From a bacterium (lineage in GTDB: Bacteria > JACRDZ01 > JAQUKH01), in assembly GCA_028719205.1 (NCBI GenBank), contig JAQUKH010000026.1, positions 1 through 37,861 on the forward strand: 37,861 bases of DNA, read 5' to 3'. Below the pieces are notes generated by a model. The model searched no databases. It had not been told where the DNA came from and was given only the letters and a program-made list of their open reading frames with translations. A program made the translations under genes and the position numbers. Within the stretch, counting starts at the first letter, position 1. Every line of letters begins with the position of its first letter. Positions 388-18,846 of the stretch are shown one piece after another.

Positions 388-400
388 TGTGAAAATATCG

Positions 401-461
401 ATGTAGTATAAACAAACAAACACTTGACAGATAATACTACATTTGTTATAATATGAACAAA
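401..461 (+). promoter_or_regulatory. Sigma70 promoter with candidate autoregulatory operators
   Basis: TTGACA (424-429), 17 bp spacer, TATAAT (447-452) with an extended TG. Inverted repeat ATGTAGTAT (401-409) / ATACTACAT (434-442), and TTTGTT...AACAAA around the -10. Confidence 0.8.
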
Positions 462-475
462 ATAAGGGGGAATCT

Positions 476-1270
476 GTGGATAATTTTAATAAAAAATTAG
501 GTATAAAAATTAAGAAACTTCGTGAGGGGGAAAAACTATCTCAGGAAAAATTGGCAGGCCTGCTAAAAATAAACAGGATATCTCTTTCTCAGATAGAAAC
601 CGGTGAGCGGAAAATAAGCGCCGAAGAAATAACAAAGCTTTCCAGAATTTTCAATGTTGCGACGGATATCCTTCTTGATCTTGAAAAGGATGCTAAAGTG
701 ACGCTTGAAAAAAGGAAAGAAAAAAACGAGAAACCGAAACAGGAAATGAGAATAAGTGTTCCGCAGAAAAATCTTACAAAGTTTAAGGAGGTTTTGCTTT
801 ATATCCTTAATAAAGTAGGCTCAAAACCGAATATCGGCGAAACGGTTATTTATAAGCTTCTTTATTTTGTGGATTTTAATTTTTATGAAAAATATGAAGA
901 CCAGTTGATAGGTGCAACCTATATTAAAAATCATTTTGGGCCGACTCCGAAAGAGTTTAATGAAATTATAAAAGATATGGAGGGAAAAGACCTCTCAAAG
1001 GTTGAAGATAAGTATTTCCAGTATCCTCGAAGAAAATACCTTCCGCTTCGAAGACCGGATATGACAAAGTTAAAAGGCCATGAAATTGAAATGATAAATG
1101 AGGTGCTTGATAGATTGTCCGACATGAACGCATCAGAGATAAGTGAATATTCTCATAAAGACGTTCCCTGGCTGACCGCCGAGGATGGGCAGGTAATAGA
1201 TTATGAGGCCGTTTTTTATCGTACGCCGGATTATTCAGTAAGGAGTAACAGTGGGAAAGATATTCAATGA
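476..1270 (+). CDS. XRE-HTH plus Panacea (DUF4065/SocA-like) antitoxin
   Basis: N-terminal XRE HTH (LSQEKLAGLLKINRISLSQIETGERKI). C-terminal KLLYFVDF...FGPTP...ISEYSHKDVPW is typical of Panacea. GTG start after AGGGGG. Confidence 0.85.
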   Translation: MDNFNKKLGIKIKKLREGEKLSQEKLAGLLKINRISLSQIETGERKISAEEITKLSRIFNVATDILLDLEKDAKVTLEKRKEKNEKPKQEMRISVPQKNLTKFKEVLLYILNKVGSKPNIGETVIYKLLYFVDFNFYEKYEDQLIGATYIKNHFGPTPKEFNEIIKDMEGKDLSKVEDKYFQYPRRKYLPLRRPDMTKLKGHEIEMINEVLDRLSDMNASEISEYSHKDVPWLTAEDGQVIDYEAVFYRTPDYSVRSNSGKDIQ

Positions 1271-1631
1271 AATAAAAAAACTTACTGAATTCGAGAATGA
1301 TTTTAAAAAGCTTTCAAAAAGATTTAGGACACTGGATGAAGATTTGGAAGTGTTTATTGATAAACAATTAAAGCTTTACCATAAATTAGGCATTGATAAC
1401 AATGGAATATTCCATATATCTAATATGGACATAAATGCTCCCAAAATATACAAAGCCAAAAAATTTGCCTGTAAATCATTAAAAGGAAAAGGTGCCGCAA
1501 GCGGGATAAGAATTATTTATGGGCATTATGAAAAGGAAGATATTATAGAGCTTGTTGAGATTTATTTTAAGGGCGATAAGGAAAATGAGGATAGGGAGAG
1601 GGTTTTGAAATATTATAAGAAAGTATCATGA
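1251..1631 (+). CDS. RelE/HigB-like toxin
   Basis: 126 aa basic protein overlapping the antitoxin; FENDFKKLSKRF...KGKGAASGIRIIY...VEIYFKGDKEN. Confidence 0.75.
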   Translation: MGKIFNEIKKLTEFENDFKKLSKRFRTLDEDLEVFIDKQLKLYHKLGIDNNGIFHISNMDINAPKIYKAKKFACKSLKGKGAASGIRIIYGHYEKEDIIELVEIYFKGDKENEDRERVLKYYKKVS

Positions 1632-2209
1632 AATTTAACCCCGATATTCATCGTAGGCGTTCTATTAGGTTAAAAAATTATGATTATTCACAGGGTGGGG
1701 CGTATTTTGTAACAATTTGTACTAACGGTAAAGAATGTTTTTTTGGTAATATTATTGAAAACAAATTGGTATTAAATGAAGCCGGTGAAATGGTAAATGA
1801 ATGGTTTATCAAAATACAACAAAAATTTTTAAATGTAAAAATTGATGAATTTATAATTATGCCCAATCATTTTCATTGTATTATTTGTATTGTAGGGGCA
1901 GACCCATGTGTCTGCCCTAATGATACGGGTGAAAATATAAAGGGCGAACACATGGGTTCGCCCCTACCTCGGATCATCCAATGGTTTAAAACAATGACAA
2001 CAAATTCATATTTAAAAAATATTGAATTAAATAAATGGCAACCGTTTGACCGCAAATTATGGCAGCGCAATTATTATGAACATATTATTAGAAACGAAAA
2101 AGAGTTAAATCGGGTCAGAGAATATATAATTAATAACCCCGTTGAGTGGAATTATGATGAAGAAAATCCGGCTAATTTTATTCCAACCCAAGCGGCGCCC
2201 ACATCGTAA
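1628..2209 (+). mobile_element. REP-associated tyrosine (HUH Y1) transposase, RAYT/TnpA(REP)
   Basis: HRRRSIRLKNYDYS, YFVTICT, HUH motif MPNHFH, WQRNYYEHIIR and YIINNP; ATGA overlap with the toxin stop. Confidence 0.9.
1892..1967. repeat. Inverted pair of GTAG-type REP hairpins inside the RAYT gene
   Basis: GTAGGGGCAGACCCATGTGTCTGCCC (1892-1917) and GGGCGAACACATGGGTTCGCCCCTAC (1942-1967). Confidence 0.85.
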
Positions 2210-5078: not shown

Positions 5079-5170
5079 TTTATTATATCAGAAAAATCTT
5101 GACAATAATCGTTATTTCCATAATATATTATGATCTGGAAAAACATAGTTTATGGAAGGAGCCTCGATCA

Positions 5171-6454
5171 ATGGAGAATGGCAAACGCCCTAAAGTGGTC
5201 ATTGTGGGAGCCGGTCTTGGAGGCATATGGGCGGCAAAGGTTTTAGCTAACGCGCAGGTGGATGTACTGCTGATTGACCGCAATAATTATCATACTTTTC
5301 TTGCCCTGCTTTATCAAGTCGCGGCGGCGGAACTTCAACCTGAAAATATAATATATCCGATCAGAAAGATCATCAGGGAATTGCCGAATGTGTCTTTTTT
5401 AATGGCTGAGGTCGAGAACATCGATTGTGAAAAAAAACTCGTAAAAACCAGCCGTGAAGAAATTGCTTATGATTATTTGATCTTAGCGGCAGGGAGCGAT
5501 ACTAATTATTTTAATATTCCCGGTGTGGAAGAATTTTCATTTCCTTTAAAAACGATAGATGAAAGTATTTTTTTAAGGAATCATATAATAAGTATTTTTG
5601 AAAGAGCGGTAGAAGAACATGATGAAATAAAACGGAAAAAAATGCTGAGTTTTGTCATTGTCGGAGGCGGTGCTACCGGGGTGGAATTCAGCGGTGCTTT
5701 AAGTGAATTAGTTCACAGGTTATTGTTGAAAGATTATCCGATGCTTGATATGTCTTTAGTGAAAGTATATCTTCTGGAAGCTTCTGACAGATTATTATCC
5801 GCAATGCCTGAAAATTGCCGCGATTACACAGCAAAACATTTAAAAATGATGGGCGTAAATGTCTATTTTAACGCTTTTGTGCAGAGAATCACGAAGGACG
5901 AGGTTTATCTGAGGGATGGCGGATTAATACAAACAGAAACAGTAGTTTGGGCGGCAGGTGTCTGTGGCGTTTCTTTCGCGAAAAAATTGGAATTAAAAAA
6001 GACTCCTGATAATAGAATAAATGTGCTTCCCACGCTTCAGACGGTTCATTATGAAAATATTTATACGGCTGGTGACCTGGCATATCTTATTGATGAGGAG
6101 GTCGGAAGGCCATTCCCAATGGTCGCGCAGGTAGCCTTACAGCAGGGGGCACTCGCGGCAAAAAATATTATGCGTCATTTAAACGGAGAGCCTTTAGAAT
6201 CCTTTAAATATAATGACCTCGGGTCAATGGCAACTATCGGCCGTCATCTGGCGGTGGCAAAAATAGGCAAAAAGACATATACAGGTTTATTCGCGTGGCT
6301 GTTATGGCTGGTTGTGCATCTTATCAGGCTGGTCGGATACCGTAACAGGGTAATTGTATTTATTAACTGGATGTGGAATTATTTTATTTATGAACGCGCG
6401 ATCCCGCTGATCTATCCATCTAAAACTGCGCCAAATTCAAAAAAAAATATCTAA
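5171..6454 (+). CDS. ndh: Type II NADH:quinone oxidoreductase (NDH-2)
   Basis: GAGLGG and GGGATGVE Rossmann motifs, LLYQVAA, AQVALQQG, GSMATIGR. Start placed at ATG 5171 after AAGGAG. Confidence 0.88.
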   Translation: MENGKRPKVVIVGAGLGGIWAAKVLANAQVDVLLIDRNNYHTFLALLYQVAAAELQPENIIYPIRKIIRELPNVSFLMAEVENIDCEKKLVKTSREEIAYDYLILAAGSDTNYFNIPGVEEFSFPLKTIDESIFLRNHIISIFERAVEEHDEIKRKKMLSFVIVGGGATGVEFSGALSELVHRLLLKDYPMLDMSLVKVYLLEASDRLLSAMPENCRDYTAKHLKMMGVNVYFNAFVQRITKDEVYLRDGGLIQTETVVWAAGVCGVSFAKKLELKKTPDNRINVLPTLQTVHYENIYTAGDLAYLIDEEVGRPFPMVAQVALQQGALAAKNIMRHLNGEPLESFKYNDLGSMATIGRHLAVAKIGKKTYTGLFAWLLWLVVHLIRLVGYRNRVIVFINWMWNYFIYERAIPLIYPSKTAPNSKKNI

Positions 6455-6544
6455 CTTAATTTACGGTGATTTCCAAATTCCGGAAGGTAAACTGTGCTAT
6501 TATATTTAAAAGGCTGCCTCAGGATATTTTATTTAGGAGATAAA

Positions 6545-7366
6545 ATGAAAAAATATTTATTATTTACTTTTTTGGTTTTGGCTTTAACATCAAATTCTTT
6601 CGCGGAGGAAACTCTTTTGATTTTTGCCGGCGCGGCGAGTAAACCTGTCCTCGAGGAAATTAACAAAAATTTTGAAAAAGAAAATAATATTAAGATAGAA
6701 ACAAGTTTTGGCGGGTCGGGGGGTATTCTTTCCCAGATGAAACTGGCGAAAAAAGGCGATCTTTATATTCCAGGGTCATCGGATTTTATGGAAAAAGCAA
6801 AAAAAGGCAACCAGGTTTTACCGGAGACAGAAGAGATAATCGCGTATTTAATTCCGTCTATTTGTGTCCAGGCCGGAAATCCGTTGAAAATAACAGGTGT
6901 TGATTCTCTGGTTGGAAAGGATATTAAGCTTGGAATTGGTGTCCCCGGGACCGTGTGCGTCGGGTTATATGCCGTTGAGATAATTGAGGGAAGCGGTTTA
7001 AAAGAAAAAATAAAACCTGAGATTGTTACTAACGCGGAAAGCTGTGAAAAAACCGCTTCGCTTGTCGCGATGAAAAATGTTGACGCGGTTTTCGGATGGA
7101 GTGTTTTTGAAAACTGGATTCCGGATAAAATAAAATCCATACCGATCGAACCGAAATATTTTAAACGGATTGGATATATCCCCGCGGCGGTTTCAGTATA
7201 TTGCAAAAATAAGGAATTAGCTGTAAAATATATCAAATATTTAAAAGCTTCGCGGTCACAGGAAATTTTCAGGGAAAGCGGGTATATAACAGCTCCGGAA
7301 GAACTTAATAAGAATTATCCCGGTGTTAAAATCGGCGGTAGTTACTTATTGCCGGATGGATGGTAA
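6545..7366 (+). CDS. modA: Molybdate/tungstate ABC transporter substrate-binding protein
   Basis: Signal peptide, FAGAASKP, FGGSG, GDLYIPGS. Start placed at ATG 6545 after AGGAGA. Confidence 0.85.
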   Translation: MKKYLLFTFLVLALTSNSFAEETLLIFAGAASKPVLEEINKNFEKENNIKIETSFGGSGGILSQMKLAKKGDLYIPGSSDFMEKAKKGNQVLPETEEIIAYLIPSICVQAGNPLKITGVDSLVGKDIKLGIGVPGTVCVGLYAVEIIEGSGLKEKIKPEIVTNAESCEKTASLVAMKNVDAVFGWSVFENWIPDKIKSIPIEPKYFKRIGYIPAAVSVYCKNKELAVKYIKYLKASRSQEIFRESGYITAPEELNKNYPGVKIGGSYLLPDGW

Positions 7367-7388
7367 GACATGAAAAGAAGAGACACTA

Positions 7389-8186
7389 ATGAATAAATTT
7401 AAAGAAAAGGCCTTTGATATCTTTGTTTTAAGTATTCTAGGCCTTTTGGTTTTATTTTTTTTATGCCTGTTTTTTTCACAAAGCGCGTTTTTCTCTTTTT
7501 CCGCTTTTTTTACGATCCTTTTTTCGAAGGAAATCTTATTTTCGCTGGGCCTTAGTTTTTTTACCGCGACAGCCGCGAGTATTGCCGCGAATTTTATAGC
7601 GGTCCCTTCGGCCTACGCGCTTTCCCGTTATAATTTTATGGGGAAGGATATTATTGACACGATTATCGATATCCCGATCCTTCTTTCCCCTGTTGCTTTG
7701 GGGACTTTGATATTAATGTTTTTCAGCACAAGAGCCGGAACATTTATCCAGAATAACTTCGTTGATTTTGTTTTCAGTGTGAAGGGAATAATCCTGGCGC
7801 AGTTCACCGTGACCGTCGCGCTGGCTGTAAAAATTTTGAAGTCTGTTTTTGACAGTATAAATCCGCGTTACGAATCAGTGGCGCGGAGCCTTGGAAGCAG
7901 CAGGACGGCGGCATTTTTCAAGGTGACCCTTCCTATCGCGAAAAACGGGATCATGACATCATTTATTCTCACATGGGCGAGGGCACTGGGAGAGTTCGGC
8001 GCGTCAGTAATGGTCGCGGGCGCGATGAAGGGGAAGACAGATACCCTGCCGGTAGGCATTTATTTGAGCCTGGCGTCTTTTGACCTTGAAAAGGCAGTGG
8101 TTCTCATTACAATCCTGATTTTTATCTCAGTTGTTATTCTCATGATCTTTAAGAAGATGGTTAAAAAAGAGGGTTGGCATATTTAA
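7389..8186 (+). CDS. modB: Molybdate/tungstate ABC transporter permease
   Basis: Multiple TM segments; DIPILLSPVALG, EAA-loop YESVARSLG, WARALGEFGAS. Confidence 0.88.
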   Translation: MNKFKEKAFDIFVLSILGLLVLFFLCLFFSQSAFFSFSAFFTILFSKEILFSLGLSFFTATAASIAANFIAVPSAYALSRYNFMGKDIIDTIIDIPILLSPVALGTLILMFFSTRAGTFIQNNFVDFVFSVKGIILAQFTVTVALAVKILKSVFDSINPRYESVARSLGSSRTAAFFKVTLPIAKNGIMTSFILTWARALGEFGASVMVAGAMKGKTDTLPVGIYLSLASFDLEKAVVLITILIFISVVILMIFKKMVKKEGWHI

Positions 8187-8187
8187 A

Positions 8188-9279
8188 ATGTTAGAAATTA
8201 AAGATTTACAAATAAAAATAGACAATAAAATTTTATTTAATGTGAATTTAAACATAAATAAAGGTGAATATTTTGTTCTGCTTGGGCCCAGCGGAGTGGG
8301 AAAGACGCTTCTGATAGAGACCATTATTAATTTGCGTAAGCCTTACAAAGGGTGTGTTTTATTAGACGGGAAGGACGTCACATCGTTATCGCCGGAAAAC
8401 CGTCCGGTCAGTTATCTTCCCCAGGACTCTTTTCTTTTTCCTCATCTTGGAGTAAAAGATAATATTTATTTTGGCGCGAGAGAGCGAAAGATTCCCGTTG
8501 CTGAACAAAATAAACGATTCGATGATCTGGTCTCTGTTTTAAATATTAAAAATATAATAGGCCGTGATGATGTGCGGACTTTGAGTTTGGGTGAACAGCA
8601 GCGTGTCGCGCTGGCCCGCGCGCTTATGGTCAAGCCCGAAATACTTTTTCTGGATGAGCCGTTTGCCTCCGTTGATGAATATCAGAAAAGGATCCTGCAG
8701 TTGAAATTAAAAGAGATAAACAGGCTGTTTAAAATAACCATTTTCCATGTTACCCATGACCGTGAAGAGGCGTTCATGCTGGGAGACCGCCTGGCGATAA
8801 TGATCGATGGAAAAATAAGGCAGATCGGCGCTCGTGATGATATCTATTACCATCCCACCTGTATTGAGGTTGCCAGGTTTATGTTGAATCAGAATATTTT
8901 TTCAGGGAAGATTCTTGAAGTTACCGGCGAAGAAGCAAATATTGAGATCAAAAAAGGGCTTATTTTAAAGGCATTAAACAGGAGTAAAAAATTCAATGCC
9001 GGGGATCAGGTATATTGCGGTATCCGTCCGGAAGAAATTGCCGTTATCAGGCCGGATCGTCCGCTTAAACCTATGTTACAGGATAATCTTGTGAAAGGTG
9101 AAATATCGGAAATATTTGAAAAGGGCGGCAACCACATACTTATTTTGAAACTTTTAGATAAAGATCCGGATATTGAAGTTGTGATCCCTAATTGCGCTTA
9201 CCGCGACATGGAAACAGCGGTCGGGAAAATAATAAGTGTTTGCCTGAAAAAAAACTCAATATGGATCCTGACGAAATAA
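8188..9279 (+). CDS. ABC transporter ATPase with C-terminal TOBE region (ModC/WtpC-like)
   Basis: Walker A GPSGVGKT, signature LSLGEQQRVALARAL, Walker B LFLDEP, HVTHD. Confidence 0.88.
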   Translation: MLEIKDLQIKIDNKILFNVNLNINKGEYFVLLGPSGVGKTLLIETIINLRKPYKGCVLLDGKDVTSLSPENRPVSYLPQDSFLFPHLGVKDNIYFGARERKIPVAEQNKRFDDLVSVLNIKNIIGRDDVRTLSLGEQQRVALARALMVKPEILFLDEPFASVDEYQKRILQLKLKEINRLFKITIFHVTHDREEAFMLGDRLAIMIDGKIRQIGARDDIYYHPTCIEVARFMLNQNIFSGKILEVTGEEANIEIKKGLILKALNRSKKFNAGDQVYCGIRPEEIAVIRPDRPLKPMLQDNLVKGEISEIFEKGGNHILILKLLDKDPDIEVVIPNCAYRDMETAVGKIISVCLKKNSIWILTK

Positions 9280-9311
9280 AAAAACGGAAAGGCTAAAAAG
9301 GAACAATTAAA

Positions 9312-10289
9312 ATGAAAAGAAAAAAGATTATATTATCGATAATATTTATTTTAATATTCGAACCTTTAGCCTTTATTTATGCTCAATCCAGGGTGACAGG
9401 TTCAGCAGAAGAAGCGTCAATCCGTGATGGAAGAAAACCGGTAAAGCTCTTAAAAATGTTTGGACAGGGCCAGTTTAATTCAATTAATAATATTTATGTT
9501 TCGCCTAAGGGCATAATTTATATTTCTGACGCAAGTGATTGTACCGTAAAGGCTTTTAATATGCGCAATGAATTTTTATTCAGTTTCGGACAGGTATCAG
9601 GATCTAAACTCCAAAGCATTATGGAACTCAGCTCGGATAATGACGGTAATGTTTATGTGGCGGATTATGATCAGGATCTTGTTAATGTTTATAATTCTAA
9701 CGGGAAATATCTTTTTAATATTAAACCGGAAACTGAAATGCAGAAAAAACTTAAGGGCAGAGGAGTTTCCGGTATGGCGGTTAACAGCAGGAGAGATATT
9801 TATATTGCTGACAGCGCGAACGGGCGTATTGAGGTCCGGGATATTAATTTAAAGTACAAATATCAGATAGATATATTTAAAAATAAAGACGGAAAAAAGC
9901 TGGAGCTTATTTCACCGGCTCATCCAAGGATAAACAGCCATGATGAGCTTTATGTTATAGACCCATTGATCAGTAGTGTTCATTGTTTTGACGCGAGAGG
10001 CAATTATTTAAGCAGTTTCGGGACATATTTATCCGCGCCTTCAGGTTTGGCTATTGACAGGTATGACAGGGTATATGTTATAGATATGAGATTCTGTGCT
10101 GTGCTGATCTATGACAGGGAAGGAAAATTTTTATACGCGTTAAGCGATGAAAACGGGAAAGAAATTTATTTACCTTATCCGACCGGTTTGGCAGTAGATA
10201 ATAATGGTTATATTTACGTAGGTTGTAATGACGGAGGCTGGGGTGTTAAGGTTTTTAAATATATACCGGCATGGGGGGAAGGGAAATGA
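9312..10289 (+). CDS. Exported NHL-repeat six-bladed beta-propeller protein
   Basis: Signal peptide; repeated PxGLAxD...YVxD...(V/I) units. Confidence 0.85.
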   Translation: MKRKKIILSIIFILIFEPLAFIYAQSRVTGSAEEASIRDGRKPVKLLKMFGQGQFNSINNIYVSPKGIIYISDASDCTVKAFNMRNEFLFSFGQVSGSKLQSIMELSSDNDGNVYVADYDQDLVNVYNSNGKYLFNIKPETEMQKKLKGRGVSGMAVNSRRDIYIADSANGRIEVRDINLKYKYQIDIFKNKDGKKLELISPAHPRINSHDELYVIDPLISSVHCFDARGNYLSSFGTYLSAPSGLAIDRYDRVYVIDMRFCAVLIYDREGKFLYALSDENGKEIYLPYPTGLAVDNNGYIYVGCNDGGWGVKVFKYIPAWGEGK

Positions 10290-13198
10290 TATATAAAAAG
10301 AGAGGTATTTATCTTCCCGTTTTATTTTGTTTGATATTTTTATCAGGGATAAACAACGTTTACGCGGAAATAATTAACAGCCCGCATGACTTAATTGCAT
10401 GGTTCAATTATTCTACCGTCAGTTCAGGGCAAACAGGGATATGCAGTTTTTGTCATTATCCGAGTGGAGGCGGCGCGCATTTTTTTGTTAATGGAAGAGG
10501 AAGTGATACAGCTAAAATATACGGAATAGTTGCTGAAATGTGCTGGAAATGCCATGGAAATAATCTATATCTGGGCAGGAATGAACCTGTGGTTTATAAC
10601 GAAATTTTTAAAACTATGGACAAAGATCACGCGCCTTTGGATTCACATCCAGTCAGGGGGATAAGTTCCAAAAGTAAGCCTGAAGTATTAAAAAATACTT
10701 ATATCCCGGCAAAGCTGGATTGGCCATGGACGGAAGGCTGGGACAGCGGAAGGGCGGATAGAGATATAGAATGTACTACCTGCCATAATGTTCACGAATG
10801 GAATTCAAAATGGGATACTCCTGACGGAAAGAGAAAATTTTTAAGGGCTCCGGTTTATTATGAATCAGCGGGTATCGGATATGATTTCTGTGTAAACTGC
10901 CACTTTAACAGGGAGAGTGACACAGCAAAAAACAATATAGGGCATCCTGTAGGACTGAACGCGAAATTTTCAAATTCCACAACCGGTATAATAATGAAAG
11001 ATACTACGGGTATGATAAGGTTATACAAAGATGATGTAATCATCTGCCGGACATGTCATATAACTCATGGCGCGGGAAATAACAAAAATGCTGATTTATG
11101 TGATAGATGCCATATTAAAGAGTCTATCCGGGGAAAAGATATATTATTTACTAAACAATTAGCTCATTCGTCAGATTATAATTCAACATTAATTTTAAAT
11201 GATAACGGGATACAAAAAGTCAAACCGTTGGAACTGAATTGGGAATTGCTGAACGCGTCCCGGGAAGGTAACATTGAAGCCGTAAAAACATTATTGGAGA
11301 AAGGTGCTGATGTAAACTCGAAAGATAAAGATGGAAATACTATTTTACATCGCGCGGTTTGGAGCGGCAACAGCGATATGGTAAAGGTCCTGCTGGACAA
11401 GGGCGCGGATATGAAGGCGCGGGACGAAGATGGAGAAACAGCATTATTGAACGCGGCCGGGATGGAGTTTAAAGCGGATATAGTGAAAATTTTGCTGGAT
11501 AGGGGCGCTGATATTAATATAAAGAACAAATATGGCAGAAATGTTCTTATGTTCGTGGCAGGAAAAAATAATAATGATATATTAAAAACTTTACTGGCCA
11601 AAGGCGCGGATGTAAATGAGACAGATAGTAATGGAGCTACCGCTTTGTTTTACGCGGCTTCGAGCGGCAATGCTGATACTATAAAAATATTATTGGAAAA
11701 AGGCGCGGATATAAACGCGAAAGATAAAAACAAAGTTACAGCTTTAATGCTTGCGGCAAAAAGGAGTAATATTGATGTTGTAAAAGTTTTACTTGATAAC
11801 GGCGCGGTTATGAACGCGAGAGATGATGATGGAGCTACAGCCATACTGTCCGCCGCTGATAATAGAGATCAAAAAGATAATAATATCCAGATCGTGAAAA
11901 TGCTGCTGGAAAAAGGCGCGGATATAAACATAAAAAGTAATGATGGTAAAACTGTTCTTATGTGCGCGGTCCAAAGAGGGTATACTGACCTGGTTAAAGT
12001 TTTGCTTGAAAAAGGCGCGGATGTAAACGCGGAAGACAGTATTGGAGCTACTGTTTTATTCCATGCTGTTTGGAACGGGGGAATTGATATAGTCCGGATC
12101 TTAATAGAAAAAGGAGCGAATGTAAACGCGCAAAATAATAACGGAGTGACTGTTTTAATGCGCGCTATTGAATCGGGACATACCGATATAGCGAAAATAT
12201 TACTGGCCAAAGGCGCGAGTGTGAATATAAAAGATAATAACGGAGCTACTGTTTTATTACACGCGTCCTGGAACGGTAATATTGATATGATAAAAATATT
12301 ACTTGGTAAAGGCGTGGATGTAAATTTAAAAGATAAAAACGGGGTAACAGCTTTATTAAACGCGTCTTTTAAGGGTGAAACTGAGGTGGTTAAAATCTTA
12401 TTGGATAATGGCGCGGATATAAAAGCTAAAGGTAAAGACGGATTCACGGCCCTGTTATACGCGACAAAAAGGGGTAATACCGATACTATGAAAGTTTTGC
12501 TCGCCAAGGGCGCGGATTTTAATATAGCTAACAGTGAAGGGAAAAATATTTTAATGTACGCGTCAGAAATGGGTTATACGGATATTGTAAAAACCTTATT
12601 GGAAAAAGGCGCTGATGTGAACGCGAAAGATAAATACGGCGTTACGGCTTTAATGCTTGCTTCAGAAAGCGGTTATAATGATATAGTGAAAATTTTACTG
12701 GAAAAAGGAGCGCAGGATAAGGCAAAAAATAAGAATGAAAATACAGCCTTGTTGAGCGCGGTTGAAACCGGCAATATCGATATTATGAAAGCCTTACTGG
12801 AGAAAAACGCTGATGTGAATATAAAAGATAAAAATGAAGTAACTATTTTAATGCGCGCGGTTGAAAGCGGCAATATAGATATTGTGAACTCTTTACTGGA
12901 AAAAGGCGCGGATATTAACGCTAAAGATAAAGACAGCGTTACGGCTTTGCTGCTCGCGGTTGAAAGGATCTATGATGATATTATGGAAGCTTTACTGAAA
13001 AAAGGCGCTGATGTAAACGCGAAAGATAAAGACGGAGTGACTGTTTTAATGCGCGCGGCTGACAGGGGAAAAATTAATACGGTTAGGTCCTTGCTTGAAA
13101 AAGGCGCGGATATGAAAGCAAAAGATAAAAACGGTTTAACGGCTTTTAATTACGCGGAAAACAGGCATGATAGCGATATTATGAAAATATTGAGATGA
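10286..13198 (+). CDS. Exported hexaheme c-type cytochrome fused to 20 ankyrin repeats
   Basis: Signal peptide; CSFCH, CWKCH, CTTCH, CVNCH, CRTCH, CDRCH; then 20 GxTAL...LLEKGADVN repeats in one open frame. ATGA overlap with the NHL gene. Confidence 0.88.
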   Translation: MIYKKRGIYLPVLFCLIFLSGINNVYAEIINSPHDLIAWFNYSTVSSGQTGICSFCHYPSGGGAHFFVNGRGSDTAKIYGIVAEMCWKCHGNNLYLGRNEPVVYNEIFKTMDKDHAPLDSHPVRGISSKSKPEVLKNTYIPAKLDWPWTEGWDSGRADRDIECTTCHNVHEWNSKWDTPDGKRKFLRAPVYYESAGIGYDFCVNCHFNRESDTAKNNIGHPVGLNAKFSNSTTGIIMKDTTGMIRLYKDDVIICRTCHITHGAGNNKNADLCDRCHIKESIRGKDILFTKQLAHSSDYNSTLILNDNGIQKVKPLELNWELLNASREGNIEAVKTLLEKGADVNSKDKDGNTILHRAVWSGNSDMVKVLLDKGADMKARDEDGETALLNAAGMEFKADIVKILLDRGADINIKNKYGRNVLMFVAGKNNNDILKTLLAKGADVNETDSNGATALFYAASSGNADTIKILLEKGADINAKDKNKVTALMLAAKRSNIDVVKVLLDNGAVMNARDDDGATAILSAADNRDQKDNNIQIVKMLLEKGADINIKSNDGKTVLMCAVQRGYTDLVKVLLEKGADVNAEDSIGATVLFHAVWNGGIDIVRILIEKGANVNAQNNNGVTVLMRAIESGHTDIAKILLAKGASVNIKDNNGATVLLHASWNGNIDMIKILLGKGVDVNLKDKNGVTALLNASFKGETEVVKILLDNGADIKAKGKDGFTALLYATKRGNTDTMKVLLAKGADFNIANSEGKNILMYASEMGYTDIVKTLLEKGADVNAKDKYGVTALMLASESGYNDIVKILLEKGAQDKAKNKNENTALLSAVETGNIDIMKALLEKNADVNIKDKNEVTILMRAVESGNIDIVNSLLEKGADINAKDKDSVTALLLAVERIYDDIMEALLKKGADVNAKDKDGVTVLMRAADRGKINTVRSLLEKGADMKAKDKNGLTAFNYAENRHDSDIMKILR

Positions 13199-13201
13199 AA
13201 T

Positions 13202-13510
13202 ATGAGTCAAAATAAAAAAATCTGCAATCAATGCGGGAAATGCTGCGAAGGGGCATTTTTTCTTATTGATGATGCCTACACGGAAGGCGGATTAGACCAT
13301 CTTGAATGGGCGCGGAACCACGGCCTGAAGACCGTCTTCAGGGAAAATTCCGAAGGGAAAAGGCTTTGGGGAATAGAACTGGATACGCCCTGTAAATATT
13401 TGCAAAAAAGCGCGGACGGGAAATCGTTTTGCGCGATCTATGAAAACCGCCCCAAAATGTGCAGGATCTACACCGGAGAAAAAGAATTTCCTGATTGCGG
13501 ATATAAATGA
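13202..13510 (+). CDS. YkgJ-family CxxCxxCC cysteine-cluster protein
   Basis: CNQCGKCC...CKYL...CAIYENRPKMCR. Confidence 0.88.
   Translation: MSQNKKICNQCGKCCEGAFFLIDDAYTEGGLDHLEWARNHGLKTVFRENSEGKRLWGIELDTPCKYLQKSADGKSFCAIYENRPKMCRIYTGEKEFPDCGYK
13476..13510 (+). repeat. Direct repeat A, copy 1 (3' end of the YkgJ-family gene)
   Basis: GAGAAAAAGAATTTCCTGATTGCGGATATAAATGA; 34/35 identical to 17132-17166. Confidence 0.95.
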
Positions 13511-13548
13511 GCTGCCTACCTGGCAAAAAAATCCATAGGATATAAAAC

Positions 13549-16500
13549 ATGAAATTTTCGAATAAAAACTTATTGCTTTTAAATGGTATAGTTTTATTGA
13601 TTTTATGTTTACATTCGTATTCAACGGCTATAGAGTTTAACTCTGGTTTAATATCCGCGGCGGAAAAAGGTGATATTAATACAGTTAAGCAGTTGTTAGA
13701 TCAAGGCGCGGATATAAACGTGAAAGACAGGAATGGTATTACCGCTTTGATAACAGCGGTATGGAATAGTTATACAGAGATAGTAAAGCTGCTGTTAGAA
13801 AAAGGCGCGGATGTGAACGCGAAAGATGATTATGGCCGGACTGTTCTGATGAAAGCGGTTGAGGATGGAAATATAGAGATAATAAAACTGTTAATGGATA
13901 AAGGCGCGGATATAAACAAAAAAGATATAGATGGAAATACTGCTTTGATATTAGCGGGAAGTTTTAATCGCCTGGAAGCAGTAACACTGCTGCTGGAAAA
14001 AAACGCTGATATTAATATTAAAAATGACGAAGGTTTCACAGCCTTTACATGGGCGTCTGAAGGAGGTTATATAGAAATAGTAAAGGAATTGCTGGAAAAA
14101 GGCGCGGATGTGAATGCGAAAACAAAGGATGGTTTTACTCCTCTTATGTTCGCGGCACGGGAGAGCCATATAGAGGTATTAAAGTTATTGCTGGATAAAA
14201 AAGCGGATGTGAACGTACAGGCAAAAAAAACCGGATTTACAGCGCTGATGTTAGCGGAAGAAAATGGTTTTAATGAGGGAGTAAAACTGCTGTTGGAAAA
14301 AAGCGCTAATGTAAATGCTAGAGATAATGCCGGTGTCACTGCCTTGATGAAAGCGGCAGAGAAAGGGAGTACAGAAATAGTAAAGTTACTGTTGGAAAAA
14401 GGCGCGGATGTAAACGCCAAAGATAATAGCAGTGTCACAGTTTTAATAAAAACGACAGAGAGCGGGAGTGCGGAAATAGTGAAATTACTGCTGGAAAAAG
14501 ATGCGGATGTAAATGTAAAAACAAAAGATGGCGGTTTTACCGCTTTGATGGAAGCGGCAAAGAAAGGCCAAATAGATATAGTACAGCTTCTACTGGAAAA
14601 AGGCGCTCATGTAAACACAAAAGCAGATAATGGTCTTGCTACCGCTCTGATCTACGCGGAAAAAAATGGCAACAAAAAAATAGTAAAATTGCTTAAAGAA
14701 GCGGGAGCCGCGGAGGCTAGTGCCAATAACCCCCCTGATCTAATATCCGCGGCGGAAAAAAATGATATAAAAACAGTTAAGCAGTTGTTAGATAAAGGCG
14801 CGGATGTAAATGTGAAAGATAAATATGGTTTCAATGTTTTGATAAAAGAGGCGGGGAGCGGTCATACGGAAATCGTAAAATTATTATTGGAAAAAGGCGC
14901 GGTTGTAAACGCGAAAACAAAAGGCGGCTATACTGCCCTGATGGCGGCGGCAGAGCAGTATAATAATACTGAGATCTTAAAAATGCTGCTGGATAAAGGC
15001 GCTATTATAAACGCGAAAACGGATAAAGGCGATAACGCTTTAATATACGCGGCAAGAGAGGGGCACACGGAAATAGTAAAAATATTACTGGCCAAGGGAG
15101 CGGATCTACACGCGAAAGACAAATATGGCCGTACCGTTCTGATGGAAGTGACAGATAGGGGTTATAAAGATATATTAAGGTCATTGGAGAATAAAGGAAC
15201 GGATATGACATCTGATATTACTGCTTTGGTGAACTCGGAATGGAATAACTACATGCAAATAGTAGAAATATTGTTGGATAAAGGCTTGGAGGTTAACGCG
15301 AAAACAAATTCCGGTTTTACCGCTCTGATGGGAGCGGCAAGGAATAGTAATAAGGAGATAGTAAAACTATTACTGCGTAAAGGAGCGGATGTAAACGCGA
15401 AAGATAAGGAAGGAAAAAATGTTTTGATGTCCGCGCTGGGCCGTGAGGGAAGCCGGACAGAAATAGTAAAATTATTACTGGATAAGGGTGCTGATGTGAA
15501 TGATTTAAAGAAAGAAGATTTCACGGCCTTTATATGGGCGTCTGAAGAAGGTTATATGGAAATAGTAAAGAAAATGCTGGCAAAAGGCGTGGATGTGAAT
15601 GTAAAAACAAATGACGGCTTCACTGCTTTGATGAAAGCGGCAGAGAAGGGGCGTACAGAAATAGTAAAACTGTTGTTGGAAAAAGGCGCGGATGTAAACA
15701 CGAAAAAAGATGACGGCCTTACTACCGCTCTTATGTACGCAAAGGAGCATGGGCACGAAAATATAGTAAAAATGCTAAAAGACGCCGGAGCTGAAGAAAC
15801 TATTGTTAATAGCGGCCCGGATTTAACATCCTTGAAGGAAAAAGGTGATATAAATAAAGAAGAACTGGTTCCGGCAAAAGCCGCGGTTATAAACGCGAAA
15901 GACACAGAGGACACTAACGCTCTGATAATTCCGAAAGTATTGGAGGAAGAAAATGTTGATATTAAGGTTCTGGCTGAAGGAAATAATACCTTTGCTGTTA
16001 ATTTATATAACCGGCTCAAAATTCAGGATGGGAATTTATTTTATTCTCCTTATAGTATTTCAACCCTGCTTGCCATGGTTTATGCCGGCGCCCGCGGAAA
16101 TACTGAGAAACAGATAGCTGAAACTTTATCCTTTCCATTTAACCGTGAACAATTTCATCCGGTTTTTGCGGGCATCATGAAGGAGTTGGGCGCGGCGCGA
16201 GGAGATAACAAAATGGAACTAAGGATGTCCAATGGCCTCTGGGTACAGAAGGATCATGTTTTTCTTAAAGAATATCTCGATTTAAATAAAATGTATTATG
16301 ATGCTGAACCGTACAATGTGGATTTCAGGAATAATGGCGAAATAGCCCGCCTGAAGATCAATAAGTGGGTGGAAGATGGAACGAAAAATAAAATTAAGCA
16401 TTTAGTCCCGCCTGGAATGATCAATTCTAATACAAAATTTATTTTAACCAACGCTGTTTATTTTAAAGCCGGATGGCTGCGCAGGTTTGGGAAAAATATT

Positions 16501-17118
16501 ACAAAGGATGCACCCTTCAAACTTCCTTCAGGAAAAAATATAAATGTGAAAATGATGTCCGGGTACGGAGAATATGAATATGGAGAAAATAATAATTTAC
16601 AAATTTTAGAAATGCCTTATAAAGACAGTGATATATCAATGATCGTATTACTGCCAAAAAAATATGATGGTTTAATGGAGACAGAAAAAATAATAAATGA
16701 TGCAAATATTAAAGAATGGATAAGTTCTCTGGAAAAGAAAGACGTGAATGTTTTATTACCGAAATTTAAAATAACTTCCAGCTTTAACCTTTCACAGTTT
16801 CTTATTTTAATGGGAATGAGTGACGCGTTCAATTTATATAAAGCTGATTTTTCAGGGATAGCGGATTTTTCTAAAATGGATAGTACAAATAACTTATTTA
16901 TATCAGAAGTAATTCACAAAGCCTTTATAGATGTAAATGAAGAAGGTGCTGTTGCCGGAGCCGCGACTTACGCGGATATGACGGAAGGAGGTATATCCAA
17001 AGATGCACCGGTTTTCAGAGCGGACCGTCCGTTTATATTCCTGATACGCGATAATTGGTCGGGAAACATTTTATTTTTAGGCAGAGTAACTGACCCAAAT
17101 GTTTTTTTAGAAGAGTAA
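13549..17118 (+). CDS. Exported ankyrin-repeat protein (22 repeats) with C-terminal serpin domain
   Basis: Signal peptide and ankyrin repeats; serpin from about 15961 (NNTFAVNLY, NLFYSPYSI, INKWVEDGT, NAVYFKAGW, HKAFIDVNEEG, FRADRPFIFLI, LFLGRVTDP). Confidence 0.9.
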   Translation: MKFSNKNLLLLNGIVLLILCLHSYSTAIEFNSGLISAAEKGDINTVKQLLDQGADINVKDRNGITALITAVWNSYTEIVKLLLEKGADVNAKDDYGRTVLMKAVEDGNIEIIKLLMDKGADINKKDIDGNTALILAGSFNRLEAVTLLLEKNADINIKNDEGFTAFTWASEGGYIEIVKELLEKGADVNAKTKDGFTPLMFAARESHIEVLKLLLDKKADVNVQAKKTGFTALMLAEENGFNEGVKLLLEKSANVNARDNAGVTALMKAAEKGSTEIVKLLLEKGADVNAKDNSSVTVLIKTTESGSAEIVKLLLEKDADVNVKTKDGGFTALMEAAKKGQIDIVQLLLEKGAHVNTKADNGLATALIYAEKNGNKKIVKLLKEAGAAEASANNPPDLISAAEKNDIKTVKQLLDKGADVNVKDKYGFNVLIKEAGSGHTEIVKLLLEKGAVVNAKTKGGYTALMAAAEQYNNTEILKMLLDKGAIINAKTDKGDNALIYAAREGHTEIVKILLAKGADLHAKDKYGRTVLMEVTDRGYKDILRSLENKGTDMTSDITALVNSEWNNYMQIVEILLDKGLEVNAKTNSGFTALMGAARNSNKEIVKLLLRKGADVNAKDKEGKNVLMSALGREGSRTEIVKLLLDKGADVNDLKKEDFTAFIWASEEGYMEIVKKMLAKGVDVNVKTNDGFTALMKAAEKGRTEIVKLLLEKGADVNTKKDDGLTTALMYAKEHGHENIVKMLKDAGAEETIVNSGPDLTSLKEKGDINKEELVPAKAAVINAKDTEDTNALIIPKVLEEENVDIKVLAEGNNTFAVNLYNRLKIQDGNLFYSPYSISTLLAMVYAGARGNTEKQIAETLSFPFNREQFHPVFAGIMKELGAARGDNKMELRMSNGLWVQKDHVFLKEYLDLNKMYYDAEPYNVDFRNNGEIARLKINKWVEDGTKNKIKHLVPPGMINSNTKFILTNAVYFKAGWLRRFGKNITKDAPFKLPSGKNINVKMMSGYGEYEYGENNNLQILEMPYKDSDISMIVLLPKKYDGLMETEKIINDANIKEWISSLEKKDVNVLLPKFKITSSFNLSQFLILMGMSDAFNLYKADFSGIADFSKMDSTNNLFISEVIHKAFIDVNEEGAVAGAATYADMTEGGISKDAPVFRADRPFIFLIRDNWSGNILFLGRVTDPNVFLEE

Positions 17119-17131
17119 GCATGAGCACTGA

Positions 17132-17166
17132 GAGAAAAAGAATTTCCAGATTGCGGATATAAATGA
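17132..17166 (+). repeat. Direct repeat A, copy 2 (orphan YkgJ-family gene tail before recN)
   Basis: GAGAAAAAGAATTTCCAGATTGCGGATATAAATGA. Confidence 0.95.
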
Positions 17167-17178
17167 TAAAATACAGCT

Positions 17179-18846
17179 ATGTTATCCCAGCTTAAAATAC
17201 AAAATTTCGGATTGATAGATTCGCTTGCGATAGATTTCTCGGATAAATTAAATATATTTACGGGAGAGACCGGCGCGGGGAAATCTATTCTTATTGACGC
17301 GCTGCGTTTTTCACTGGGGGAACGTTTAGACAGTTCCCAGGTTCGTGACGCGGATAAGCCCTGTGCCGTTGAATCCGTTTTTGAACTTACGGATAAATTT
17401 CTTAAAGAGACACCTGCTTTTTCTGAATATATTTCCGATGAGGACCCGCTTCTTATTATAAACCGCACGTATCTTCCTGACGGCCGCAACAGGATCAAAA
17501 TAAACGGATTTAACATAACGGTTTCGCAGTTAAAAGAGATCGGCAATCATCTTGTTGATTTTCACGGGGCGAACGACCACCAGATGATCCTGGCGGAGGA
17601 ATCGCACATAAAGATCATCGACAGGCTTTCTGACCTTGCAGCGGAAAAAGATGAATATGCCAAAAAATATGCCGGATATTTAAATCTGCAAAAAGAACTG
17701 GATGAATTGCGGGCTTCTTCAAAGAACCGTGAGCAGGACGAACAGCTTCTAAAACATCAGATAACGGAACTGGAACAGGTTACGCTTGATGAAGCTAACT
17801 ACAGGAATATTCTGGAAGAACGCGCCCGCATGAATAATTCCGAAAAATTATACGAACACGCCGGTGAACTGGTTAAGATCTTTGAAGATGAAGAAACCGG
17901 CCTGGATAAACTGATCACGCAGGCGTTCGGCCCGATGAAGGCATTGAATAATCTGGATAAGGGAACAATTAATTTTATGGAAGTACTTAAAAATATGCAG
18001 GAAGAGGCACAAGGATTATCGCACGATCTTTCCAATTACCTTGACAGTCTTTCCTTTAACCCTGATAAAACAAAAAATATAAATTCGCAGTATGATTCCT
18101 ATTATGAAATATTAAGAAAATACGGCCCGGCATTGGAGGACGCGGAAAAAATATACGAGTCGGCGAAGAAAAAATATGAATTGTTAGTAAATCTGGAATA
18201 TAACGATTCAAAATTAAAAGAAGAAATACAGGCACTTCGGAACGAACTGAAAAAGATCGCGGATAAAATAACAGCGAAACGCAATAAAACATCAAAATTT
18301 TTAAAAGAAACAATTGAAAAAGAATTAAAAGAACTGGGCATTAAAAATATCCAATTTGAAGCAAGGATCGATAAGATTGATTTTACCGATAAAGGGCAGG
18401 ACAGGGTTGTTTTTTACATGAGCCCGAATATCGGCGAGGAATTAAAACCTCTGGCGCAGATAGTCTCGGGCGGAGAGTCGGCAAGAGTGATGCTCGCTAT
18501 AAAAAAAGCGTTGACCAAAGTAGACCCGATCCCGGTTCTCGTTTTTGACGAGATAGACGCGCAGATCGGAGGCCGGCTTGGGGACATCACAGGCAAAAAA
18601 CTCAAAGAGCTTTCGGACAACCGACAGGTAATACTTATTACGCACCTTCCACAGATCGCCGCGTTTTCCGACCATCATTTCAAAGTCACAAAAAAAGTTA
18701 AAGACAACCGCACGATAATAAACGTGGACCTCCTTGATAAAACCGCTCGCGTGGAGGAATTGGCGAAAATGATGAGCGGGGAGAAAGAATCTCCGATCGC
18801 GTTGAAGCACGCGAGAGAGATGCTTGGGAGAGTGGAAAATGGATAA
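17179..18846 (+). CDS. recN: DNA repair protein RecN
   Basis: TGETGAGKS, coiled coil, VSGGESARVMLA, LVFDEID, ITHLPQIAA. Confidence 0.96.
   Translation: MLSQLKIQNFGLIDSLAIDFSDKLNIFTGETGAGKSILIDALRFSLGERLDSSQVRDADKPCAVESVFELTDKFLKETPAFSEYISDEDPLLIINRTYLPDGRNRIKINGFNITVSQLKEIGNHLVDFHGANDHQMILAEESHIKIIDRLSDLAAEKDEYAKKYAGYLNLQKELDELRASSKNREQDEQLLKHQITELEQVTLDEANYRNILEERARMNNSEKLYEHAGELVKIFEDEETGLDKLITQAFGPMKALNNLDKGTINFMEVLKNMQEEAQGLSHDLSNYLDSLSFNPDKTKNINSQYDSYYEILRKYGPALEDAEKIYESAKKKYELLVNLEYNDSKLKEEIQALRNELKKIADKITAKRNKTSKFLKETIEKELKELGIKNIQFEARIDKIDFTDKGQDRVVFYMSPNIGEELKPLAQIVSGGESARVMLAIKKALTKVDPIPVLVFDEIDAQIGGRLGDITGKKLKELSDNRQVILITHLPQIAAFSDHHFKVTKKVKDNRTIINVDLLDKTARVEELAKMMSGEKESPIALKHAREMLGRVENG

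Follow-up and report, generated by a model that had tools for sequence, protein, structure and literature searches.

What would an exported multiheme cytochrome gain from a long ankyrin solenoid attached to its heme chain? This question is raised by a gene in the 37,861-nt window, the whole stretch of bacterial DNA analyzed here (contig JAQUKH010000026.1). In this gene (10286..13198, + strand; 970 aa, ~103 kDa for the mature protein without hemes), an earlier note made from the letters alone had described one open frame with a signal peptide, six CXXCH motifs, and then 20 ankyrin repeats, and we found all of these by sequence inspection, Pfam searches, repeat register, and AlphaFold2. The open frame spans 10271/10286..13198 on the + strand, and the ATG at 10286 is preceded by the purine-rich GGGGGGAAGGGAA. 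This ATG shares an ATGA overlap with the TGA stop of the preceding gene (9312..10289, + strand), which encodes a 325-aa NHL beta-propeller (Pfam NHL, E = 1e-13) with a Sec signal peptide. The claim that the two genes are translationally coupled was thus upheld. The predicted signal peptide of the cytochrome (residues 1-27; 10286..10366, + strand), read from the sequence as MIYKKRGIYLPVLFCLIFLSGINNVYA/EI, shows n-, h-, and c-regions of the Sec type and a predicted cleavage site at VYA/EI. The mature start x-I-x-x-S/T-x-H-D is found in 26 of 26 aligned homologues. No lipobox, transmembrane segment, or known anchor domain that could serve as an attachment point was found in the protein by sequence or Pfam.

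The six CXXCH motifs are located at residues 53, 86, 163, 202, 254, and 272. The first four (nt 10442-10456, 10541-10555, 10772-10786, and 10889-10903, + strand) belong to an OmcE-like tetraheme unit (residues 28-206; 10367..10903, + strand) with H34, H65, H121, and H170 as candidate distal histidines. The unit is followed by a heme 5/6 extension (10904..11185, + strand), defined by alignment to a family of 14-heme cytochromes, with candidate distal histidines H220, H261, and H294. The heme 5 motif CRTCH (nt 11045-11059, + strand) is common to this 14-heme family. The heme 6 motif CDRCH maps to nt 11099-11113 (+ strand), exactly where the note had placed the last CXXCH; it is present in this protein alone, is absent from all aligned relatives, and may lack heme binding. 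Residues 28-316 contain eight non-proximal histidines for six hemes, which is enough for the axial ligands; together with the export signal and several CXXCH motifs, this is the combination by which c-type multiheme cytochromes are recognized. In the 26-sequence family alignment, H34, H121, and H170 are conserved in all members and H261 in 25, and the columns C254/C257/H258/H261 are nearly invariant. Since the five shared heme motifs and these four histidines are (nearly) invariant, the heme motif and histidine pattern is, judging from the alignment, far beyond chance. Two Pfam models gave marginal matches for which no single stretch passes alone, namely, Paired_CXXCH_1 (PF09699; 28.4 bits against a gathering cut-off of 20.6) and MtrC/MtrF domain II/IV (PF22113; 32.5 bits against 30). 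The AlphaFold2 model of the heme domain, built without hemes, has a pLDDT of 42.

The resemblance to OmcE-like, paired-CXXCH cytochromes that the note had pointed out was strengthened by these Pfam scores and by profile comparison with solved structures. OmcE is a tetraheme cytochrome nanowire subunit (Geobacter sulfurreducens, PDB 7TFS; Desulfuromonas soudanensis, PDB 9YUQ). A family profile of 26 sequences matched the OmcE filament subunit 7tfs_A (E = 4e-30; profile positions 11-200 on chain residues 9-231), the second OmcE nanowire 9yuq_N (E = 7e-27), and OmcS (E = 1e-14); the match of the single sequence to OmcE was marginal (E = 0.011). The OmcE alignment runs from the S-x-H-D motif through heme 4; it includes all four heme motifs and, of the four conserved distal histidines, three (H34, H121, and H170). 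By these matches, the N-terminus clearly belongs to a multiheme cytochrome. The motif order is the same as in OmcE (S/T-x-H-D, CXXCH, CXXCH, D/S-H-P, CXXCH-x-V-H, F-L-R, and CXXCH), and at the profile level the four CXXCH motifs have the conserved order and spacing over the whole subunit.

Several features are unlike OmcE. One source (PMC13712944) describes four further conserved heme-coordinating histidines in the OmcE family, one of which is replaced here. This histidine, located after heme 1 in CXXCH-x-P-H, is kept in OmcE and in 23 of the 26 family members but is missing in this protein (CHYPS; the next histidine is H65), in its same-genus orthologue, and in one other protein, so that the ligation of heme 1 may be altered. 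An x-H-F-F histidine was gained in both ankyrin fusions and occurs in no other family member. Furthermore, OmcE is a stand-alone protein of ~230 aa (~220-230 aa in the family) that ends after heme 4 and polymerizes, whereas the chain here continues with heme 5, the sixth CXXCH, and an ankyrin array of 654 residues. According to the same source, OmcE gene clusters contain beta-propeller lipoproteins (PMC13712944). A propeller gene likewise adjoins the cytochrome gene in this window, but the propeller has no lipobox cysteine and no large beta-barrel gene is adjacent. A PD40 and Omp85-like protein is encoded 5 kb from the cytochrome gene on the other strand.

The heme module groups with ~950-aa, 14-heme cytochromes that share a homologous N-terminal five-heme module and an upstream NHL gene (C42:8001-10853, P0004, P0005, P0006, and P0008). 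One of these is a paralogue in the same genome (contig C42:8001-10853; 950 aa), with an NHL gene directly before it. The heme module shares 47% identity with the N-terminus of this paralogue and 37-43% with P0004-6, and the NHL genes preceding the cytochrome-ankyrin gene and the paralogue are 45% identical. In an IQ-TREE phylogeny of 28 heme modules, with heme counts taken separately from the sequences of the members, the fusion, P0003, and P0002 form a 100/100 clade nested within a 99/96 clade. The six other members of the latter are five 14-heme proteins (943-969 aa) and P0007 (344 aa, five CXXCH). The phylogeny thus places the origin of the heme module inside the 14-heme clade, and the ankyrin repeats, found here instead of hemes 6-14, appear to have taken the place of the distal nine-heme part. 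The stem of the fusion clade is long (0.95 changes per column), which could reflect relaxed constraint or a new function. A segment of ~30 residues before heme 5, present in the 14-heme cytochromes and in all six other aligned relatives, has been deleted from the 20-repeat fusion. Clusters of a kind similar to the 14-heme cytochromes are the NHL-associated outer-membrane cytochromes of Desulfovibrio ferrophilus IS5, a species for which NHL propellers next to outer-membrane cytochromes have been described (PMC5815863).

Conservation of the fusion extends to a second species. In the same-genus genome G004, an NHL gene is followed directly by an orthologue (G004:C127:8018-9568) that encodes P0003, a protein annotated only for its ankyrin part (NCBI "MAG: ankyrin repeat domain-containing protein [bacterium]"). 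The two fusions are 51-55% identical and share the signal peptide, five CXXCH motifs, the shifted x-H-F-F histidine, and the match between their first two ankyrin repeats and C-terminal caps. P0003 differs in having six repeats rather than 20, in lacking the sixth CXXCH, and in keeping the ~30-residue insert. The NHL genes of the two loci are 64-68% identical, and the one in G004 contains an in-frame TAA; either the NHL partner is dispensable there or this is an assembly error.

Family similarity ends at a junction or linker (residues ~301-316; 11186..11233, + strand), after which the ankyrin array begins. The array (residues 317-970; 11234..13195, + strand) was detected by Pfam Ank_2 (E = 2e-200) and by Ank (E = 6e-140, with 19 separately scoring stretches). 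The 33-residue register gives 20 repeats, from R01 (317-349) to R20 (950-970), and AlphaFold2 modeled 20 helix pairs (residues 314-969) with pLDDT of ~60-85. The array has a pI of ~6.0, a single cysteine (residue 560), and no CXXCH. In Foldseek, the modeled arm best matched the 24-repeat solenoids of ankyrin-1 and ankyrin-B (E ~1e-15), so that Pfam, register, AlphaFold2, and Foldseek agree on a tandem 33-residue solenoid of the ankyrin type. Compared with the membrane-binding domains of these two proteins (PDB 8CS9 and 4RLV), the arm is likewise a long uninterrupted solenoid and shows 28-29% identity over ~700 columns. However, its repeats read T-A/V-L-M/L without the canonical T-P-L-H, and TM-scores are low (0.25-0.32) because the modeled superhelix differs. 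Moreover, ankyrin-1 and ankyrin-B are cytosolic proteins of eukaryotes with membrane proteins as ligands, whereas the fusion protein is bacterial and exported. Membership among the Legionella Dot/Icm ankyrin effectors (NCBIfam AnkY, AnkH, AnkG, and others) was rejected; all matches to these models were at the repeat level, and the best reached 298.7 bits against a cut-off of 600.

Taken together, we propose that the protein is a Sec-exported short heme wire whose ankyrin arm makes it an adaptor, and we give this reading about an even chance of being correct. The wire would consist of an OmcE-type tetraheme core, the family-conserved fifth heme, and the lineage-specific sixth CXXCH. Its ancestor would have been a ~950-aa, 14-heme cytochrome of extracellular electron transfer; the gene pair of NHL propeller and cytochrome would have been duplicated, and the distal nine-heme part then exchanged for ankyrin repeats. 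The cytochrome-ankyrin protein would be made together with its NHL propeller, and its heme module probably docks where the 14-heme paralogues do, in the electron-transfer machinery of the envelope. The ankyrin solenoid has no cofactor and therefore could not carry electrons; it probably binds a protein partner or an envelope scaffold. In this way, five or six hemes through which electrons enter or leave would be tethered by the adaptor to a partner other than a cytochrome. The domains, the homology, the origin inside the 14-heme clade, the conservation of the fusion, and the pairing with NHL were observed directly in the analysis; the heme loading, the location in the periplasm or at the surface, and the binding by the arm, including the docking or spacer role suggested in the note, are predictions.

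Alternatively, the arm may be a passive spacer, ruler, or solubilizing device without a specific ligand, its length tuned by repeat number, and would serve only to stabilize the heme head or to keep it a fixed distance away from its anchor. We consider this possible but rather unlikely. Congeners that share the first two repeats and the cap have either six or 20 repeats, a variation more easily explained by a tunable arm than by a single long binding groove of fixed size. The internal repeats are near consensus and ~40-44% identical to repeats of the three other ankyrin proteins in the genome, and tandem DNA units of the array match at 67-79%, which indicates that the array expanded internally in the past; these observations also favor a spacer. 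However, a spacer needs an attachment point, and the protein offers none of the anchors sought above. In addition, long ankyrin solenoids such as those of ankyrin-1 and ankyrin-B, for which structures have been solved, are protein-binding platforms.

The OmcE-like unit could instead make the protein a terminal subunit (a cap, tip, or anchor) that plugs into the end of a heme wire of OmcE-type units. The wire would be formed by the 14-heme paralogues or their polymer, the arm would fasten its end to the envelope or a target, and the shifted histidine after heme 1 would let the unit accept the chain without extending it. We regard this as unlikely, and a more specific version, in which the protein is the missing end piece of OmcE-type wires whose relocated inter-heme histidine caps or starts the chain while the 20-repeat arm fastens the end, as slightly more doubtful still. 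In favor of a terminal role, the alignment of the unit to the OmcE filament subunit runs over the full length, only the two ankyrin fusions and a single further protein have lost the CXXCH-x-P-H histidine, and the gained x-H-F-F histidine is unique to the fusions. We take the equivalent CXXCH-x-x-H histidine of OmcS (His16) to be the one donated to the neighboring subunit. In addition, Petersen et al. (2026) state that the proteins at the anchor and tip of OmcE filaments are unknown and name as the thing to look for an OmcE-like protein in which the histidine or heme content is altered (PMC13712944). On the other hand, the genome contains no stand-alone tetraheme cytochrome of OmcE size, and the full-length unit matches in it are three C42 cytochromes and this protein. 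We know of no precedent for polymerization of 14-heme proteins, and the closest relative, P0002, keeps the P-H histidine.

The neighborhood bears on the possibility that the cytochrome part is a relic, i.e., that a decaying or merely carrier heme domain is attached to an exported effector- or adhesin-like ankyrin protein acting on other cells or proteases. A small, putatively Zn/Fe-chelating protein of the CxxCxxCC type, which lacks a signal peptide (13202..13510, + strand; PF03692, E = 2e-9), begins 3 nt past the cytochrome stop; no such ORF follows the orthologue in the last 360 nt of G004:C127. It is followed by an exported 1189-aa protein of ankyrin repeats and a C-terminal serpin (13549..17118, + strand; Ank, E = 6e-155; Serpin, E = 1e-115, residues 811-1183), a second protein combining an ankyrin arm with a functional head. 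A loose ankyrin motif (at least three matches) found four ORFs in the genome, all Pfam-confirmed and with signal-peptide-like N-termini; besides the fusion and the serpin-headed protein, two are ankyrin-only. In favor of the adaptor reading, the arm looks like a reusable module. These exported ankyrin proteins, the long stem branch, the lost ~30-residue segment, and the loss of one conserved distal histidine are consistent with a relic. Nevertheless, we consider it highly improbable: at 51-55% identity, neither species has lost any of the five ancestral CXXCH motifs or H34, H121, H170, or H261, the translationally coupled NHL partner is retained, and the Legionella-type effector models score far below their cut-offs. 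An assembly chimera of a cytochrome gene and an unrelated ankyrin gene, which the repetitive array might suggest because repeat cross-matches yield many spurious contig joints, is almost certainly wrong, since a 17,651-nt Logan contig (from another assembler, possibly of the same sample) covers 9979-13600 with no differences or gaps, the independent same-genus genome has the same junction, and GC is uniform across the gene (0.385-0.395).

The fusion is rare. Among 67 HMMER relatives of the heme module, from 1.84 billion representatives, one has the fusion, and it was found in none of 63 loci of species genomes. Our literature search found no description of the fusion, and together these results argue against an architecture that is already common and characterized. 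The statement in the earlier note that this architecture was unfamiliar holds in these respects, but it has to be qualified by another ankyrin and multiheme cluster in the ESM Atlas. This cluster comprises 446-aa bacterial proteins, most commonly from Acidobacteriota, all 93 of which (100%) carry Pfam Ank, Ank_2, and Cytochrome_C554, an architecture of the same kind. By language-model features, no other cluster is nearer, with scores of 0.89 for residues 1-450 of the 20-repeat fusion (P0001) and 0.90 for P0003 and with 118-125 of 256 features shared, below the usual level for one family. It is not among the 67 HMMER relatives, and the fusion described here is restricted to a single genus within an uncultured lineage.

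The host genome appears equipped to use such a cytochrome. At least 44 of its ORFs have three CXXCH motifs or more, with a maximum of 37, and it also encodes five genes of the cytochrome c assembly family and Omp85/BamA together with three secretins, which indicate a diderm envelope.

Known long-range extracellular electron transfer relies on cytochrome nanowires and on porin- or propeller-associated multiheme cytochromes. How the ends of the wires are anchored, capped, or joined to non-cytochrome partners is described as an open question in one source (PMC13712944). This gene may be regarded as a natural experiment, in which an OmcE-type module was apparently cut from a 14-heme wire and given a large, predicted protein-binding arm, with the propeller partner retained and the fusion conserved in two species. 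If found, the partner of the arm would reveal what such heme wires plug into. If the end-piece reading is true, cytochrome nanowires would have their first candidate for an anchor or tip protein, and an ankyrin solenoid would for the first time be seen to position a redox wire outside the cytoplasm. Because ankyrin repeats are already an established engineering scaffold, the fusion may also offer a natural design by which short heme wires could be tethered to proteins of choice.

The gene at 10286-13198 (+) encodes P0001, an exported 970-aa protein in which an OmcE-type module with five or six hemes is fused to a 20-repeat ankyrin solenoid; the fusion is conserved and is co-encoded with an NHL propeller. 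It occupies a single open frame (10271 or 10286 to 13198). The ATG at 10286 follows a purine-rich stretch and overlaps, as ATGA, the TGA of the gene directly upstream, which encodes the exported NHL propeller (9312-10289, +; Pfam), so that translational coupling, as proposed in the earlier note, is plausible. Read from the sequence, the N-terminus is a typical Sec leader (KKR, hydrophobic core, VYA/EI). A lipoprotein anchor was rejected on the same reading, since VLFC at residue 15 is not a lipobox. The six CXXCH motifs of that note (residues 53, 86, 163, 202, 254, and 272) were recovered, the last exactly at nucleotides 11099-11113, and its signal peptide and count of 20 repeats also hold. 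Pfam matches included Ank_2 (E = 2e-200) and Ank (E = 6e-140), together with weak but above-threshold matches to Paired_CXXCH_1 and the MtrC/MtrF domain. In a promoter/terminator scan, sites were no more numerous than in shuffled sequence (47 vs. 36.9 ± 6.3 and 12 vs. 10.3 ± 3.0).

A phmmer search of 1.84 billion representatives with the heme module found 67 relatives at E ≤ 0.001, five of which reached E ≤ 1e-30. These five are P0003, the orthologous fusion in the same-genus genome G004 (C127:8018-9568); P0002, the closest relative (301 aa), whose gene may be cut off because its longest contig has only 1713 nt; and three 955-969-aa proteins, each bearing 14 CXXCH. The single sequence of P0001 matched OmcE, the tetraheme nanowire subunit of Geobacter sulfurreducens, only marginally (E = 0.011). 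In a profile-to-PDB sequence search, a family profile built from 26 of these sequences matched the OmcE filament subunit (7tfs_A; E = 4e-30), the OmcE nanowire of Desulfuromonas soudanensis (9yuq_N; E = 7e-27), and OmcS (E = 1e-14). Because the aligned stretch begins at the S-x-H-D motif, ends at the fourth CXXCH, and so covers the whole OmcE chain, residues 28-206 can be assigned by sequence as an OmcE-type tetraheme unit, in agreement with the resemblance to OmcE and paired-CXXCH cytochromes noticed previously. Heme 5 (C254) is common to the 14-heme family, whereas the sixth CXXCH (CDRCH, 272-276) occurs in this protein only in the alignment with its relatives.

The heme region has eight non-proximal histidines for its six CXXCH. 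H34, H121, and H170 are invariant in the family alignment, and H261 is lacking in just one of the 26 sequences. The CXXCH-x-P-H histidine, found in 23/26 family members and in OmcE, is missing in P0001, P0003, and one other protein; an x-H-F-F histidine, 7-8 residues further on, is found only in the two ankyrin fusions. OmcS donates His16, at the CXXCH-x-x-H position, to the neighboring subunit. AlphaFold2 without hemes (residues 1-310, 26-row alignment) gave a model of the domain too poor to be of use (mean pLDDT 42.2, pTM 0.30), and a complex prediction of residues 28-215 with four hemes and the NHL propeller, run without controls, gave a score of 0.01 and a mark of 0.32, a result that weighs in neither direction.

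The genome that harbors P0001 (2.59 Mb, 68 contigs) has at least 44 ORFs with three or more CXXCH, the maximum in a single ORF being 37. It also encodes three secretins, a homologue of Omp85/BamA, and five members of the cytochrome c assembly family. One contig, C42, is occupied over its entire length (1-17417, -; both ends cut) by an electron-transfer cluster. Its eight multiheme cytochromes (CXXCH counts including 14, 5, 8, 14, 15, 14, and at least 10) are accompanied by two NHL propellers, a TPR-AhpC/redoxin fusion, and a TPR/YfiO-like lipoprotein; the contig lacks a barrel gene. One of its NHL genes, 45% identical to the NHL gene of the window, directly precedes a 950-aa, 14-heme cytochrome (C42:8001-10853), the N-terminus of which is 47% identical to P0001. 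In a search of the genome with the unit profile, P0001 and three C42 cytochromes were the only proteins with full-length units. Two giant cytochromes (C12:38726-46306 and C21:29215-33378; 37 and 34 CXXCH) contain many tandem OmcE-like units (13 and 10 profile domains) and represent covalently concatenated "wire" proteins.

Maximum-likelihood analysis of 28 modules (tree midpoint-rooted for drawing only) grouped P0001 with P0003 and P0002 in a 100/100 clade with a long stem (0.95). This clade is nested in a 99/96 clade with six other members, namely, five 14-heme proteins (943-969 aa) and P0007 (344 aa, 5 CXXCH). The fusion is thus derived from 14-heme electron-transfer cytochromes: an NHL-cytochrome pair was probably duplicated, after which ankyrin repeats would have taken the place of the part bearing hemes 6-14.

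The C-terminal arm follows a 33-residue register of 20 repeats (317-349 to 950-970), and a single-sequence AlphaFold2 model has 20 helix pairs at residues 314-969 (pLDDT about 60-85). In structural comparison, the modeled arm matched ankyrin-1 and ankyrin-B best, both solenoids of 24 repeats. Its repeats are near-consensus bacterial ankyrin (G-x-T-A/V-L-M-x-A ... LLEKGADVN), and the array, which has one cysteine and no CXXCH, cannot conduct electrons. DNA units within the arm match at 67-79%, which reveals an older internal expansion. In P0001, repeats 1 and 2 and the C-terminal cap have counterparts in P0003, but the two proteins differ in repeat number (20 vs. 6).

The pairing with a propeller has published parallels. 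According to PMC13712944, every OmcE cluster contains a large barrel together with beta-propeller lipoproteins, and in Desulfovibrio ferrophilus NHL propellers lie beside outer-membrane cytochromes and are proposed (PMC5815863) to stabilize the complex. We consider the chances about even that P0001 tethers a short heme wire to a partner other than a cytochrome, in which case the heme module would keep its place in an NHL-associated machinery and the ankyrin arm would bind a protein or scaffold. The difference in repeat number between the two orthologues favors an arm that is a passive spacer, a reading that we regard as rather unlikely. It is more doubtful still that P0001 serves as a cap, tip, or anchor subunit: the relocated histidine favors such a role, as does the question of such subunits posed in PMC13712944, but the unit-profile search detected no stand-alone OmcE-size subunit in this genome. 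Decay of the heme domain is highly improbable, given that its motifs are intact in two species.

An assembly chimera joining a cytochrome gene to an ankyrin gene is essentially excluded, since a 17,651-nt contig, built from run X1 (possibly the source sample of the assembly) with another assembler, spans 9979-13600 with no differences, a further run of that study yielded two identical pieces, and, more tellingly, G004 has an NHL gene followed by the 508-aa P0003 with the same junction. The junction on which the earlier reading depended is thus spanned in a second assembly. Runs X2 and X3 cover only parts of the window, no RNA data set was among the runs listed as containing it, and GC content is even along the gene.

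The combination is rare. Among the 67 heme-module relatives, only P0003 has ankyrin repeats (its NCBI name is simply "ankyrin repeat domain-containing protein [bacterium]"), and among the six species genomes of the phylum in the collection, the fusion recurs only in G004. None of the 63 loci encoding unit relatives in species genomes of many phyla has ankyrin motifs in the same frame; these loci were found with an alignment query of genome contigs, and a single-protein query gave no relative. The heme region had no match at E ≤ 0.001 among proteins of 533-1698 aa. For residues 150-420 of P0003, all 119 non-query proteins among the 120 listed of 4213 matches are ankyrin proteins, and none has two or more CXXCH. 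As a type, the multiheme cytochrome-ankyrin architecture is not unique: the ESM Atlas cluster nearest to P0001 (score 0.89) and P0003 (0.90), which may or may not be related, has 93 members (446 aa, mostly Acidobacteriota), all with Ank, Ank_2, and Cytochrome_C554. Full-text literature searches returned no description of such a fusion in the text they covered; PMC12660748 names ankyrin and multiheme cytochromes only separately, and "NHL" is absent from PMC5566968. P0001 is a new and lineage-restricted form of kinds already known, an OmcE-type multiheme cytochrome with an NHL partner and an ankyrin arm. Separately, in many metagenomic proteins of ~840-860 aa (P0083, P0113, P0116, P0122, P0131, P0149, and others), found for example in Aminicenantes, a beta-lactamase/serine-hydrolase domain (PF00144) is joined to an ankyrin array, another recurrent design of ankyrin arm and enzyme head in uncultured bacteria.

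Several neighbors of the NHL-cytochrome pair deserve mention. On the opposite strand, 5 kb upstream, lies the gene for a 965-aa protein (2178-5078, -) with PD40/WD40-like propeller repeats and, at its C-terminus, an Omp85-like beta-barrel (PF01103, 43 bits, above the cut-off); it is a candidate counterpart of the "large barrel" of OmcE clusters. Upstream of the NHL gene, and separated from it by 32 nt, are the genes of an ABC importer (6494-9279, +), which comprises an SBP_bac_11 binding protein, a permease, and an ATPase with a MalK-like OB tail; since this importer is missing upstream of the orthologue in G004, it probably lies outside the unit. The G004 NHL gene has an in-frame TAA (C127:7512-7514) at a Glu codon of the window gene (…VKP*TGMQKK… vs. 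…IKPETEMQKK…), which reflects a nonsense mutation if it is not an error of that assembly. Mobile or defense DNA may account for two regions: 476-2209 (+), with an HTH and SocA/Panacea antitoxin-like gene, a small ORF, and an IS200/Y1-transposase-like ORF; and a low-GC stretch (24-27 kb, GC 0.26-0.32) with an Mrr-like nuclease gene, near which lies a second Y1-transposase-like ORF (27481-27972, +). The window also encodes an S8 subtilase (22176-23351).

The second gene downstream of P0001 (13549-17118, +) encodes an exported protein of 1189 aa. Its signal peptide is followed by a long ankyrin array broken by short linkers (15 separately scoring Ank stretches in Pfam), and its C-terminal part is a complete serpin domain (residues 811-1183, E = 1e-115); such an ankyrin-armed protease inhibitor is an unusual architecture in itself. 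Recent copying of the P0001 arm from this gene was rejected, the identity being ~42%, as with other ankyrin genes; the arm shares about 38-44% identity with the three further ankyrin proteins of the genome, too little for it to have been copied recently from any of them. A periplasmic ankyrin protein of Pseudomonas aeruginosa, AnkB, supports a heme catalase. All four ORFs with at least three matches to a loose ankyrin motif, P0001 included, are confirmed by Pfam and have signal-peptide-like N-termini, and one carries the serpin head. Exported ankyrin solenoids therefore seem to serve this organism as reusable arms for different functional heads.
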